A DNA stretch of 64,000 nucleotides from Eledone cirrhosa (GCA_964016885.1 OZ024740.1:207142001-207206000), one strand, 5' to 3'; positions 8,435 through 15,207 are shown, counted from the first letter of the stretch. The notes: a model not told the origin generated them from the letters alone. Program-made: numbers and translations.

Positions 8435-8975
8435 TATAAGTATGTATACGTACATACATATATGTATACAGACGTACAGTAGTATGTATATACATACATA
8501 CATACATACATACATACATGCACACACATATATATATACGTATGGGTTTACCGATCATTTATTATAATGCTCGGTTTGTTTGTAAACAAACAGCCCGAAA
8601 TTATTAGCCGTACAGTGTTCGGCAACCTTCGTTGCCCTTTTGTTCACCACTGACAAAGAAACGATGAACTAGTTTCTAGCTTATTAGCTGTCATCAGCAC
8701 CGATACCTTCCTGTCAGTCGATTGAACGTTTGAAAGTATATACTTTCCTTATGCATATAATGCAACATATTGTCAGTGGTGAACAAAAGGGCAACGATGG
8801 TTGCCGAACACTGTACGGTTAATAATTTCCGGCTGTTTGTTTACAAACAAACCGAACATTATAATAAATGTTCGGTAAACCCATACGTATATATATATGT
8901 GTGTGCATGTATGTATGTATATACATACTACTGTACGTCTGTAAACATATATGTATGTACGTATACATACTTATA
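8435..8975. repeat. Fold-back repeat: arms of about 205-220 bp (8435-8655 and 8771-8975) around a hammerhead-containing spacer
   Basis: The arms are direct reverse complements. The same family is tandemly repeated at 11928-12623. Confidence 0.9.
8662..8702 (-). ncRNA. Minimal type I hammerhead ribozyme motif (family B)
   Basis: cggtg CTGATGA c-agct-aata-agct-a GAAA ctag TT catcg. Stem I is cggtg/catcg and stem III is the palindrome CTAG. Confidence 0.75.
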
Positions 8976-9051
8976 TTTAAGTATCAGCCGTACTAAGAGT
9001 GAGAAATGAAATTTCATTTTTTCCATTTATATATATATATATATATATATA

Positions 9052-9387
9052 TATTATTAAAAATATTAATAAATGAAGACATTCACATAATCAAAATATA
9101 TGTTTTATTATATATATTTCGAAGGTACTGTGGTGTTTTTTCAGTACGTCCTCGTCAGATAAAATACATGAATTGATGTATGACATACCTCAACGGTCTT
9201 GATGGATCAATTCCAATATTAGCAGGAATTGAACCATCAAGACAGTTGAGGTATGTCATACATCAATTCATGTATTTTATCTGACGAGGACGTACTGAAA
9301 AAACAGCGCTGTACCTTCGAAATATATATAATAAAACATATATTTTGATTATGTGAATGTCTTCATTTATTAATATTTTGAATAATA
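9052..9387. repeat. Near-perfect palindrome (arms of about 163 bp, 10-nt loop) with a hammerhead motif in each arm
   Basis: Arms 9052-9214 and 9225-9387 are reverse complements with a few mismatches. Embedded between (TA)n tracts. Confidence 0.93.
9271..9338 (+). ncRNA. Type I hammerhead ribozyme motif (family A); mirror copy on the minus strand at 9101-9168
   Basis: tgtattttat CTGACGA ggacgtac-(loop)-gtaccttc GAAA tatata TA ataaaaca. Stem I is ttttat/ataaaa. Confidence 0.8.
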
Positions 9388-9626
9388 TTAATAACTCCAG
9401 AAAACTTTTTTGTAGAGTGCTTTTAATCTATTGTAAAACTATATTCATTGAGTAATCAATGAACCATATTAATCTTTGGTTATTTATATATATATATATA
9501 TATATATATATATATATATATATATATATATATATATATATATATATATATATATATATATATATATATATATTATATATATATATATAATATTATATAC
9601 ATGTATATATATATATAATATTATAT

Positions 9627-10045
9627 TTTCGCCGAAAAGAAGTAAGTGACATAGCCACTACTTTAAAACTGATAGCGTATAGTCTTCTAAATGTTTTTAA
9701 TTAAACATACGGTATATTGCCAAATATACTATACATATATTCATGTATACATCGCTATTTCAGAGCACCAATCCTAATTCCTAATTTTTGCTGGACCGGC
9801 AATTGCTCTGTATAATCAGCTCCTGATTATTACTGGAATCCAGCTTCTATGATTTTCGGTGGAAGCAGGGGAGTACGTGGCTCTGATGAACGCCAACCAG
9901 CGTAAAACAGACTGACAGCTTCTCTCCCTTCTTTCGCCGAAAAGAAGCAAGTGACATAGTCACTACTTTAAAACTGCTAATGTATGCTCTTCTAAATGTT
10001 TTTAATTAAACATACGGTATATTGCCAAATATACTATACATACAT
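9627..10045 (+). repeat. Direct repeat with a 305-bp period (about 1.4 units) containing a degenerate hammerhead (family C, 9879-9920)
   Basis: TTTCGCCGAAAAGAAG.. occurs at 9627 and 9932. The motif ggct CTGATGA acgc caacca gcgt aAAA cag a ctg aC agc has two core substitutions. Confidence 0.7.
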
Positions 10046-11239: not shown

Positions 11240-11927
11240 TCGTATGTGTGTGTGTGTGTATATATATATATATATATATATATATATATATATATATATA
11301 TATATATATATATATATATATATATATATATATATATATATATATGTGTGTGTGTGTGTATGTGTGTGTGTGTGTAATATATATATATATATATATATAT
11401 ATATATATATATATATATATATATATATATATATATATATATATATATATGTGTGTAATATATATATATATATATATATATATATATAAATGAAAGGTAT
11501 AGAAATTGTTGTAGCGAGAAGCTAACAGTATTCCATAACACACACACACACACACACACATATATATATATATATATATATATATATATATATATATATA
11601 TATATATATATATATATATATTATGGAATATATATATATATATATCTCTCTATATATAATATATATATATATATAATATATAATATATATGTATATAATA
11701 TATATCTCTCTCTATATATAATATATATATATAATATATAATATATATGTATATAATATATATGTATATAATATATATCTCTCTCTATATATAATATATA
11801 TATATATATATAATATATATGTATATAATATATATGTATATAATATATATAATATATATAATATATATAATATATATGTATATAATATATATGTATATAA
11901 TATACCCTCTCTATATATAATATATAA
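11240..11927. repeat. Compound (TA)n/(TG)n microsatellite and TA-rich low-complexity tract
   Basis: Directly visible. Confidence 0.95.
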
Positions 11928-12623
11928 TATAAGTATGTATACGTACATACATATATATATACAGACGTACAGTAGTATGTATATATATATATATATATAC
12001 ATACATGCACACATATATATATATGTACGTATGGATTCACCGAACATTTATTATAATGCTCGGTGTGTTTGTAAACAAACATCCCGAATTAAGCCGTACA
12101 GTGTCTAGCAACCATCGTTGCTCATTTGTTCAACCCAGACAAAGGAACGCTGTACTAGTTTCAAGCTTATTAGCTATCGTCAGCAACGTATACCTTCCTG
12201 CCAGATGGTTGAACGTCTGAAAGTATAAACTTTCCTTATGCATATTAACGGCTGAGCAGCCTAATTTGCATATCGAGTGAGTTAATCGGCTGGGGTACCG
12301 AAAATGATAAATGAAAAAAATGAAACGAAATTTCATTTCTCACTCTTAGTACGGCTGTTACTTAAATATAAGTATGTATACGTACATACATATATGTATA
12401 CAGACGTACAGTAGTATGTATATATATATACATACATGCACACATATATATATGTACGTATATATATGTACGTATGGATTCACCGAACATTTATTATAAT
12501 GCTCGGTGTGTTTGTAAACAAATATCCCGAATTAAGCCGTACAGTGTCTAGCAACCATCGTTGCTCATTTGTTCAACCCTGACAAAGGAACGCTGTACTA
12601 GTTTCAAGCTTATTAGCTATCGT
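11928..12623 (-). repeat. Tandem repeat of about 443 bp (about 1.6 units) of hammerhead family B
   Basis: The segment TGTACTAGTTTCAAGCTTATTAGCTATCGT occurs at 12151 and 12594. Homologous to 8435-8760 and 8976-9030. Confidence 0.9.
12147..12189 (-). ncRNA. Minimal type I hammerhead ribozyme motif (family B)
   Basis: acgttg CTGACGA t-agct-aata-agct-t GAAA ctag TA cagcgt. Six-bp stem I and a GUA cleavage triplet. Confidence 0.8.
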
Positions 12624-13220
12624 ATTGTTTGTTTGGGTGTTATTATTCCATTCATTTTTTCTGTTTAGCTCTTATCTGATTTGCCTACCTCTTGGGTCAT
12701 TTCTATGTTGTCTATGTTACCGTCATGTTGTTGTCTGGCGTGTCCGTATAATACTGGACCGTTTTTTTTTGTCCTTTTAATTCCCTCCAGTGTTAGTCTA
12801 TCCTTTCTCCTATGCTACGAGCTGTCTCATCTATGTATGTCGTTGTCATGTTTCTGCAAGTACCCTCTGTACATCTTATGCTATAGACTACATTTCTAGT
12901 TTTATAGTTTATCTGGAGGTTTACTTTACATATAACACATTTCTTATTAGTACAGTGGGTTTTCTTAAAAGGGTACGTTTCGCTGATCAGGGATTTTATG
13001 GTAGTTCCTAGCTTTTCTACCATTTTAATCTTTAAGTGGGTCTTTCTTAGGGCCTTTCTACATTGGTTAGCTAATTTCCCTCCAGGGGTAGCATCCACGA
13101 ACAAGACACTTTGGTATCTCTGGTTGTCGTACCATGAGGTGGCTTTCCTTTCTAGTTTTACAGTTTATCTGGGGGTTTACTTTACATATAATACATTTCT
13201 TATTAGTACAGTGGGTTTTC
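12624..13220 (-). mobile_element. Inverted duplicates of the 3' part of the adjacent Penelope-like element
   Basis: 12624-13146 is the reverse complement of about 14367-14948 with small deletions (MFVDATPGGKLANQCRK..). 13147-13220 re-copies about 14550-14620. Confidence 0.9.
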
Positions 13221-15207
13221 TCCTCAGCAGAATCAATGAGTGCAACAAAAACAAAAACCTATCTAACTGTATAATAGGCAGTATGGACGTGGTATCACTG
13301 TACCCATCCATTAACATTGATTTTGCTGTGGAAAAATGTGTGGAAATGATCGGTGAGTCTTAGGTGGAGTTCTGCGATGTAGACACAGATGAACTGGGCC
13401 TCCTACTTAGACTTACTTACGACACCGAGTACCTAGACAGCCATGACCATAGCCATTTCTGCCCCAGTACACCCATAAGAGGTAGGCCCCACACCATAAC
13501 ATCAATGGAAAAAAAGACTCCCAAGGGAAGATGGATTGGGTGGACCAAAGCCATACGGACACCCAAAAACAATGATCAGGTGAGAAAAATGGCCGCGCAT
13601 GCAATAGGGGCTAGTATTAAAACTACCCTAAAGGGCCATATATTCAAATTCAATGAAAAGATCTACACCCAAAATGAGGGAGCAGCCATTGTCGTCAGTA
13701 TAGCTGGAGACGTTGCCAATCTTATTATGGTATGGTGGGAAATGAGACTCAAAGATCTCCTTGAAGAGAGCTCAATAGACCTCATCATGTACTCTCGTTA
13801 CGTAGACGATACTAATATAGTAATAAGGACCCCCCCCTCCCACACAAGAGAGTACTAACGAACATGATTTAGAATATAGCACAATGGAAAGCATCCAGCT
13901 GATAGCTAACTCCATACACCAGAGTATAACTGTAACTATTGACTACTCTTCCAAACACCATAACAATAGACTACCTGTATTAGACACGGAACTCTGGATT
14001 AACACTATAGACGAGAGGGCCCAACTTCTCCACTCACACTACGCTAAACCCATGGCCTCCAAATACCTGATACTCAAAAACTCAGCAATGTCCAGTAGTG
14101 CTAAGTTTAATATTCTGATCGCAGACTTGGTACGAGTGATGAAGAACGTGTCCAGCATGTGCGACCCAACAGAAATGGAAAGACACATCCAACACTTCAT
14201 CAACCGCATGCAGTTCTCTGGCTACAGCCAAAGAGACAGAATCAAAGTATACAAAGGAGCCACGGAGAAGTATAAGACCCTCGTAGAACTGGACATGAAA
14301 GGAATTTGCTCATTATACAGGAGCAATCATGGAATAGCTTAGATAGGACTAAACATAAGATAGGGAAAGCCACCTCATGGTATGACAATCAGGGATACCA
14401 GAGTGTCATGTTCGTGGATGCTACCCCTGGAGGGAAATTAGCTAACTAATGTAGAAAGGCCCTAAGAAAGACCCACTTAAAGATTAAAATGGTAGAATAG
14501 CTAGGAACTACCATAAAATCCCTGATCGGCAAAACGTACCGTTTTATGAAAACCCGCTGTACTAATAAGAAATGTGTTATATGTAAAGTAAACCCCCAGA
14601 TAAACTGTAAAACTAGAAATGTAGTCTATAGCATAAGATGTACAGAGGGTACTTGCAGAAACATGACAACGGCCTACATAAGTGATACAGCTCGTAGCAT
14701 AGGAGAAAGAATAGACCAACACTGGGGGAATTAAAAGGACAAAAAAAACAAAAACGGTTCAGTACTATACAAACACGCCAGACAACAACATAACGGTAAC
14801 ATAGACAACATAGAAATTAAAATAGTATCTAAACATAGAAATGACCCAACGGGTAGGAAAATCAGAGAAGCAAGCGAAATAGAGCTTAGAAAGCCAGAGC
14901 TAAACAGAAAAAAAATGAATGGAATAATAACACCCAAACAAACAATACTGACTTAAGAGAAATATAAATAAATAAATAAATATATACACAAGCACAATAA
15001 CAACAAACACATATAAACACACTAATAAACTAAGATAGAATACAATAACCAAAACATATACACCCAAACGCGTGCGCAAAAACGGAGACAAAAATAAATA
15101 AATAAATAAATAGATAAAATAAAAATGGCGTAGACAGTACAATACATACAACACAGCAGGGGAAACATGATAATAGTACCACTGATGATGTTAGAAGTTT
15201 GTTAGAC
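13221..15207 (+). mobile_element. Penelope-like retroelement (RT + GIY-YIG), 5'-truncated and decayed; Naiad-like motifs
   Basis: GSMDVVSLYPSI, YTQNEGAAI..AGDVAN, YSRYVDD, LPVLDTELW, HYAKPMAS, SVMFVDATPGG, CTNKKCVIC..RNVVYSIRC..AYISDTARS. A partial CTGATGA motif lies at 15182. Confidence 0.9.

Follow-up and report, generated by a model that had tools for sequence, protein, structure and literature searches.

Described systems and the Eledone locus

Type I hammerhead ribozymes are associated with two kinds of mobile DNA, the pseudo-long terminal repeats (pseudo-LTRs) of Penelope-like elements (PLEs) and the animal non-LTR retrozymes. The PLE motifs have a short palindromic stem III, come in opposite-strand pairs 100-700 bp apart and form many unrelated sequence families within one genome (Cervera 2014, PMC4209133). 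Retrozymes are tandem units without an open reading frame (ORF) that carry a type I hammerhead (PMC7229834; 10.64898/2026.07.22.740005). They have a GC content below 50%, a strongly self-paired predicted circle, a high copy number and co-occur with PLEs (PMC7229834), and it has been argued that they derive from PLE pseudo-LTRs (Li 2026, 10.64898/2026.07.22.740005). We analysed a stretch of 64,000 nucleotides of Eledone cirrhosa DNA (GCA_964016885.1, OZ024740.1:207142001-207206000), called the window below, in which hammerhead-bearing modules, named A to F, are clustered beside a PLE, named PLE1. A first-pass annotation, made from the sequence alone, had taken the system to be possibly undescribed. 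Yet it is already described in outline: a cluster of retrozymes and PLE ends within a TA microsatellite is a known type of system.

PLE insertions are on record as truncated at the 5' end, partly in tandem and accompanied by an adjacent copy in inverted orientation, with a tail of 30-40 bp at one end and a bias for (TA)n (Craig 2021, PMC8557442), and the head-to-head polarity of copies was noted by Arkhipova et al. 2013 (PMC3846280). Two internal start sites of the reverse transcriptase (RT) enclose the tail, and the nuclease prefers AT-rich DNA (Frangieh 2024, PMC11167929). Hydra and Naiad families of Octopus are listed with a (TA)n preference (Craig 2021, PMC8557442). The available text of Cervera and de la Pena 2020 (PMC7229834) has 0 occurrences of cephalopods, and that of Li, Clavereau and Pollet 2026 (10.64898/2026.07.22.740005) covers 35 genomes with no mollusc among them. 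No hammerhead study in octopus was found in a literature search that left subscription papers largely outside, and the available part of PMC13282606 has 0 occurrences of ribozyme or retrozyme.

Very probably at least eight separate PLE-type insertions (B1, A, C, D, F, E, B2/3 and PLE1) entered a (TA)n/(CA)n microsatellite at this locus, with B and C as retrozyme-type cargoes and A, D, E and F as short 3' ends. Like Neptune, Hydra and Naiad insertions the cluster shows 5' truncation, partial tandems, an inverted truncated copy, a tail and TA targets. It differs from them in tails of B1 (~50 nt) and A (~95 nt) that exceed 30-40 bp, and in that PLE1 joins a C-terminal nuclease to a long insertion between RT motifs 3 and 4 (RT3-RT4). 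Compared with the pseudo-LTR hammerheads (PMC4209133), six families lie within 4.2 kb, stem II of the B hammerhead is mismatched at its base, and the evidence here is of sequence only. In contrast to the animal retrozymes, only 1.4-1.6 units are present per locus, and B has an inversion, a one-sided tail and a 3' end fixed in TA, evidence of a sort that is not used in the available parts of PMC7229834 and 10.64898/2026.07.22.740005. The features of the cluster are as follows.

8431-9027, no single strand: B1, head-to-head hairpin insertion of retrozyme type; left arm sense minus, right arm sense plus, tail of ~50 nt on the right arm only
8662-8702, minus: type I hammerhead of B1, stem III CUAG, by the strict descriptor
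9054-9480, no single strand: A, head-to-head hairpin insertion, tail of ~95 nt on the right arm only
9103-9164, minus: type I hammerhead of the A left arm, stem III UAUAUA, by the strict descriptor
9275-9336, plus: type I hammerhead of the A right arm, by the strict descriptor
9627-10046, plus: C, 305-bp ORF-less unit in ~1.4 head-to-tail copies, from self-comparison
9879-9920, in C: decayed hammerhead with two core substitutions, read by eye
10093-10611, no single strand: D, head-to-head hairpin insertion, tail of 40 nt on the right arm only
10311-10342, minus: hammerhead remnant at the centre of the D hairpin, by eye
10626-10903, plus: F, single module; decayed hammerhead at 10801-10840, stem III CCGG, two core mismatches
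10926-11052, plus: E, 127-bp module that begins at its hammerhead and ends in (CA)n
10926-10961, plus: minimal type I hammerhead of E, stem III CG, by the strict descriptor
11083-11245, no strand: 163-bp stretch between microsatellites, with no hammerhead and no second copy in the window
11259-11925, no strand: long imperfect (TA)n tract, apparent target of B2 and probably also of the inverted PLE1 arm
11926-12623, minus: B2 and B3, tandem of 1.6 head-to-tail copies of a 437-bp ORF-less unit, from self-comparison
12147-12189, minus: complete type I hammerhead of B2, by the strict descriptor
12590-12623, minus: hammerhead of B3, cut, an incomplete motif
12624-13221, minus: inverted 5'-truncated arm of PLE1, endonuclease region and a second piece of 72 bp; fused to B3 at 12623/12624
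13220-15590, plus: PLE1, 5'-truncated broken element; RT and C-terminal GIY-YIG ending at 14956, 3' end probable
~15175-15225, in PLE1: possible decayed hammerhead

Hammerhead motifs and insertion anatomy

The strict descriptor for type I hammerheads consisted of the CUGANGA and GAAA boxes, stems I and II and a UH site. Complete cores were found at 5 of the 40 CUGANGA heptamers of the window, all within 8662-12189, and they belong to three families (A twice, B twice, E once). Block-wise dinucleotide shuffles of 8435-15207 yielded no complete hammerhead (0/200), and shuffles of the whole window (n=40) gave a mean of 0.15 with a maximum of 1. A relaxed scan that tolerated two core mismatches returned 18 raw end positions; with a stem I of at least 3 bp there were seven matches in the window, six of them inside 8400-12650; the mean over 150 shuffles was 0.07. 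Family F, which is decayed, accounts for the sixth match of the cluster. C (9879-9920) and D (10311-10342) failed both scans and were recognised by eye only; the D remnant is missing part of the first box and, in stem I, the 5' strand, and its stem III is itself TA repeat. Thus, of the five families listed in the first-pass annotation, A, B and E stood with complete cores and C and D with decayed or cut ones; the decayed core of a further family, F (10801-10840), the sixth, had been overlooked. Both A cores are complete, but they are arms of one hairpin and count as one insertion. A lone hammerhead-like core with two mismatches was also seen at 26883-26913 on the plus strand, after a short TA run; its stem I has 2 bp and it may be chance.

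A short palindromic stem III is present, UAUAUA, CUAG and CG being self-complementary, as are the inserts CCGG and UAUA among the modules. Predicted duplex energies of the palindromic stems III range from -0.8 to -8.3 kcal/mol. Because these stems are short and palindromic, the hammerheads are expected to cut weakly. E and F share with the PLE pseudo-LTR hammerheads (PMC4209133) the extra base after A9 and the G-C first pair of stem II; stem I of E has 4 bp only and is borrowed from the flank. Judged by their sequence, the hammerhead motifs of the cluster are real.

Self-comparison of the window together with views of the junctions gave the layout. From the left, (CA)n is followed by the B1 hairpin, (TA)n, the A hairpin, (TA)n, the partial tandem of C, (TA)n and the D hairpin; then come (TA)n, F, (TA)n, E, (CA)n, the 163 bp, the long (TA)n, B2/B3, the inverted PLE1 arm and the forward PLE1. 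As previously stated, (TA)n or (CA)n tracts separate the modules, which are unrelated in sequence, with AT-rich matches of at most 29 bits between them. There are four head-to-head inversions (B1, A, D and PLE1), and in all four the sense strands diverge from the centre, while C, E, F and B2/3 have no inverted copy of their own. The three non-coding hairpins (3/3) have a tail on one side. All 3' ends inspected run into (TA)n or (CA)n, and target-site duplications are unreadable within the repeats. In short alignments the divergence between paired arms or copies was 1.3% for D, 1.4% for B2/B3, 3.7% for A, 4.5% for B1, 5.5% for PLE1 and 8.7% for C, which is compatible with insertions of differing age. 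This range, together with the dinucleotide run at the end of every module, bears out the idea of an insertion hotspot in a TA microsatellite. By these sequence criteria, the modules show the insertion anatomy of PLEs.

A mechanism consistent with this anatomy would begin with the PLE GIY-YIG nuclease nicking the AT repeat. The PLE RT would begin 50-260 nt downstream of the hammerhead, at internal sites that are fixed, would usually halt early and would often switch strand; the product would be a head-to-head hairpin of which one arm is tailed. Because TA repeat remains on either side of every insertion, the target would persist and insertions would pile up. B and C, as circularly permuted ORF-less units, would borrow PLE proteins in trans, and A, D, E and F would be short 3' ends from PLE families that are autonomous or from additional non-autonomous ones. 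The weak hammerheads might cut as dimers via the palindromic stem III, or with the help of proteins, and cleavage would free unit-length RNA from tandem or read-through transcripts. We infer cleavage, mobilisation in trans and the PLE clade that would serve each module from the motifs and their setting.

The first-pass annotation had regarded all modules as non-autonomous. This held for B and C, which are tandem units without an ORF. A, D, E and F have a 3' geometry like that of B and C but no closed period, and could equally well be 5'-truncated ends of autonomous PLEs, because in autonomous PLEs this motif occupies the same position; for some of the four this origin is probably the correct one. 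Within the window no further copies of A, C, D, E or F were found. A tblastn search with 6 PLE1-group proteins detected no coding remnant in A, D, E or F, the modules being too short for one.

Families B and C and the adjacent element PLE1

The longest stop-free frame of the B unit has 67 codons at a GC content of 35%, and that of the C unit 52 codons at 39%. The predicted circular fold was more stable than 100 shuffles for both (z -8.5 for B, z -4.6 for C). Their unit lengths of 437 and 305 bp lie in the range of ~150-450 bp of retrozyme units, ORF-less and head-to-tail with a type I hammerhead, the motif of C being decayed. Thus, by their anatomy, B and C appear to be non-autonomous units of the non-LTR retrozyme type. 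Active loci in Li 2026 are marked by two consecutive units with complete hammerheads, which neither the B nor the C tandem has. A stretch of ~20-30 nt is common to C (9828-9860) and to a motif at the ends of a dispersed repeat (47059-47090, 46785-46810).

B1 and B2 differ by 12.4%, yet end at the identical base. The tail of B1 continues across the junction of B units, and the junction sequence is the same as in the independent B2/B3 tandem. Between the B1 and B2 hammerheads no changes are found at the 23 positions of the core and of stems II and III, against 6 at the 20 other positions (p=0.006, a post hoc comparison); in stem I there is one swap from G.U to U.G. The U.U mismatch at the base of stem II of B is also present in HHR_Amex2 of the axolotl. 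A Hydra-clade assignment of B and C from the style of their hammerheads was considered and dropped, L001 (a PLE1-related locus, see below) and an axolotl retrozyme having similar bases in stem II.

Among the modules, multi-copy status was examined for B, which is a multi-copy family and very abundant. Four read runs were placed on 12030-15570 at 80% likeness, skipping 12368-12479, 14954-15237 and 15429-15470. Depth in these placements is no copy number; in run X1 the B bins were ~7-fold deeper than the bins of the PLE1 ORF. The summed contig depth of three B2 bins in the same run was 0.8-1.6 million versus 7-12 for the single pieces listed, and 11,000-14,000 raw reads fell on each B2 bin in run X21. 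Pieces of B were also present in contigs of two other organisms (runs X5 and X6), with 5-14 differences per 130-159 nt. Among the sequencing runs listed as matches none was of RNA, and of those with a small share X5 and X6 were used. No variant inside the B hammerhead is among the 40 of 610 variant rows listed, and a search of a genome contig library with the B motif gave 0 matches. Loose read ends at 12328/12329, 14026 and 14306/14307 in X21 were considered as ends of elements and rejected as ligation artefacts, because agreement there was 0.34-0.39 and each coincides with or adjoins an AATT site, where the molecules of that library end. Among these AATT sites in X21, one exists only as the majority variant.

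The cluster adjoins a PLE, as had been claimed, with RT and GIY-YIG frames at 13220-14956 that are interrupted by stops and frameshifts. The end at 15207 that had been given for it is probably too early. Opposite-strand read joints link the PLE1 ORF to 15293-15390 and depth is high at 15243-15570, so the 3' untranslated region (UTR) of PLE1 probably runs to ~15590; the very deep repeat at 15243-15590 may instead be a separate family rather than the PLE1 3' end.

The best match of the PLE1 protein was a hypothetical protein of Octopus vulgaris with 68% identity, which makes an octopus the probable host. The group is large, with 195 proteins in one library (E<=1e-10) and 251 cluster representatives in a second (E<=1e-30); relatives occur in Octopus, Holothuria and many metagenome contigs, and none were found in viral contigs. 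The spacing between RT3 and RT4 was 123-141 aa in 141 of the 142 proteins (of 266) in which both motifs were found, with a median of 129, and 128 aa in the closest relative, which is alignable to the window copy over that stretch. This corresponds to ~70 extra residues. In sample rows of Fig. S1 of Craig 2021 (PMC8557442), counted by hand, the same spacing is ~58 in Penelope, ~80 in a Naiad, ~120 in the longest Chlamys, ~115 in human TERT and ~150 in Tetrahymena TERT.

The nuclease follows YxDD in 50 of 51 PLE1 relatives with both found. With a C-terminal GIY-YIG and a CX4CxxC linker PLE1 fits the CX2-5CxxC of Neptune and Nematis, with Nematis-like short spacing, but its long RT3-RT4 insertion departs from these clades, which have no fingers insertion (RT3-RT4 ~55-60 aa). 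The C-terminal nuclease also sets it against Naiad and Chlamys, where GIY-YIG is N-terminal, and it has neither the CxCX5C linker of Hydra nor that clade's lack of a fingers insertion. According to Craig et al. 2021 (PMC8557442) the fingers insertion is a mark of PLEs with an N-terminal nuclease. Thus PLE1 appears to fit no animal PLE clade as defined there, set apart by described traits and not by a tree. We found no published description of a PLE with a C-terminal nuclease and such an insertion in a search that left subscription papers largely outside, and five motifs of the group are absent from the Craig 2021 supplement (PMC8557442); the group may already have a name.

A model of a PLE1 relative from an alignment of 100 sequences reached a predicted local distance difference test score (pLDDT) of 92.8, compared with 31 for a single-sequence model. 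The best structural match of the alignment-based model was telomerase (Z 16.4, root-mean-square deviation 3.4, 240 aligned), which is expected for any PLE; the fold search covered mainly residues 1-477 and says nothing on the likeness of the insertion to that of TERT. A hammerhead was present in one of four related loci: L001 has an intact one with an AT-only stem III, 51 nt before (TA)n. L002 ends within the ORF, L004 comprises the 5' part only, and L003 continues for ~370 nt past the stop without a hammerhead. L003 and L004 are PLE sequences in bacterial metagenome-assembled genomes, probably by host contamination.

The window as a whole is repeat-rich animal DNA. It contains a second PLE with a Neptune-like linker, a Pfam GIY-YIG match and ordinary RT3-RT4 spacing:

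61568-64000, minus: second PLE, ending in (TA)n

A decayed hammerhead lies at 61759-61788 of this element, 190 nt before (TA)n, with a CCGG stem III as in F. Next to it, 61332-61532 holds a short head-to-head inversion (61355-61425) with unequal arms between (CA)n and (TA)n, which has the look of a PLE-type end; no hammerhead was found there. A family of dispersed repeats of 150-350 bp, which we take to be SINE-like, occurs at 7955-8292 and at least eight other places. On the minus strand, 1356-7813 is a long interspersed nuclear element with apurinic/apyrimidinic endonuclease, RT and zf-RVT frames, whose 3' 1.3 kb is tandemly duplicated at 82% identity, and 47397-48987 carries an RT fragment followed by a PHD finger. 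An LTR-type remnant at 50143-53962 has an aspartyl protease frame between direct repeats of 400-450 bp with 34-bp units.

Competing explanations and meaning of the cluster

Several observations weigh against a cluster of ribozyme-bearing PLE-type insertions. The Rfam comparison that the first-pass annotation had suggested did not recover the motifs: there were 0 matches in the window at gathering score and no hammerhead among 107 matches at E<=10, the microRNA matches being long hairpins and microsatellites, all under gathering score. For the 9 motifs, the cores alone are no more stable than shuffles (z -2.5 to +0.5), and the fold of minimum energy is often not that of a hammerhead. The hammerheads of C, D and F are defective in their present state, and no tandem here has two complete hammerheads. 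A TA-rich self-complementary block supplies part of the folding energy of B, and the one compensatory pair in B, from two sequences only, is not significant, with 268 of 500 shuffles scoring as high. Of Xenopus retrozyme dimers, 1 of 9 was cleaved in vitro (Li 2026, 10.64898/2026.07.22.740005). Minimal hammerheads of this sort needed a special descriptor in Cervera and de la Pena 2014 (PMC4209133) too, and by analogy cleavage may be dispensable for insertion, hammerhead mutants of an Anolis element having still inserted in vitro (Frangieh et al. 2024, PMC11167929).

We consider it unlikely that the cluster consists of at least five distinct non-autonomous families that were all moved by the adjacent PLE, with the fusion of B to PLE1 as a template switch that caught one such event. 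B3 is indeed fused, in the same direction and with a 2-nt overlap, to the inverted PLE1 arm where that arm ends, shortly before the ORF is complete, and the stem III UAUAUA of A resembles the AT-only stem III of L001 and of the possible decayed motif in the PLE1 3' UTR. On the other hand, 11,117 reads of X21 depart from the window sequence at 12625 and go on into ordinary PLE1 3' UTR with 0.97 agreement; thus B is not the normal terminus of PLE1. Furthermore, B2 and B3 are less diverged (2/148 differences, 1.4%) than the PLE1 arms (29/524, 5.5%; p=0.04), so that a later entry of B at the TA end of the PLE1 arm, with loss of the 3' UTR of that arm, is favoured over a template switch, which was downgraded on both counts. 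This dating would be weakened if the PLE1 arms had been copied from two different templates. Stem III types vary among the modules, which suggests several partner PLE clades, and A, D, E and F could equally be ends of autonomous PLEs. The role of mobiliser given to the neighbouring PLE in the first-pass annotation is therefore not upheld.

It is rather improbable that autonomous PLE families, through 5'-truncated ends (pseudo-LTRs), account for every module including B and C, with none separately non-autonomous. The second PLE and L001 carry the motif at the same place, the former 190 nt before (TA)n and with CCGG as in F, the latter at 51 nt; Hydra consensi have a hammerhead near the 3' end (Craig 2021 File S2, PMC8557442), and besides the opposite-strand pairs 100-700 bp apart, single motifs have been tied to truncated PLEs (Cervera 2014, PMC4209133). 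What separates B and C from such ends is their head-to-tail arrangement with periods of 437 and 305 bp and no ORF, and a B unit junction of identical sequence in the independent B1 insertion. That the motifs are chance products of AT-rich, foldback or MITE-like (miniature inverted-repeat transposable element) DNA, or the hairpins assembly artefacts, is hardly credible and for A, B and E largely refuted: the missing Rfam match, the low-complexity surroundings and the TA repeat in the palindromic stem III of D would fit it, against which stand the 0/200 shuffles with a hammerhead, arms of unequal length and 1.3-5.5% divergence, unlike foldback reads or terminal inverted repeats, and opposite-strand joints of other PLE1 copies in raw reads.

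Until now the case for PLEs as mobilisers of retrozymes has relied on co-occurrence and pseudo-LTR similarity (Li 2026, 10.64898/2026.07.22.740005). We hold it as a tentative possibility that B (and C) are unreported cephalopod retrozymes with PLE marks at their junctions, and that PLE1 represents an unnamed, widespread (TA)n-targeting clade that combines a fingers insertion of telomerase length, a C-terminal GIY-YIG and a minimal hammerhead. Two leads merit pursuit, the unplaced PLE1 group and the ends of PLE type that retrozyme B shows. If true, the junctions would provide evidence for the movement of retrozymes by internal priming of PLEs, and the fixed 3' end, inversion and tail of B could be counted genome-wide as a direct test of PLE mobilisation. 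Likewise, the published rule that only PLEs with an N-terminal nuclease have the insertion would break, and an unnamed PLE1 group would add a PLE clade with a TERT-sized fingers insertion, which bears on the link between PLEs and telomerase.

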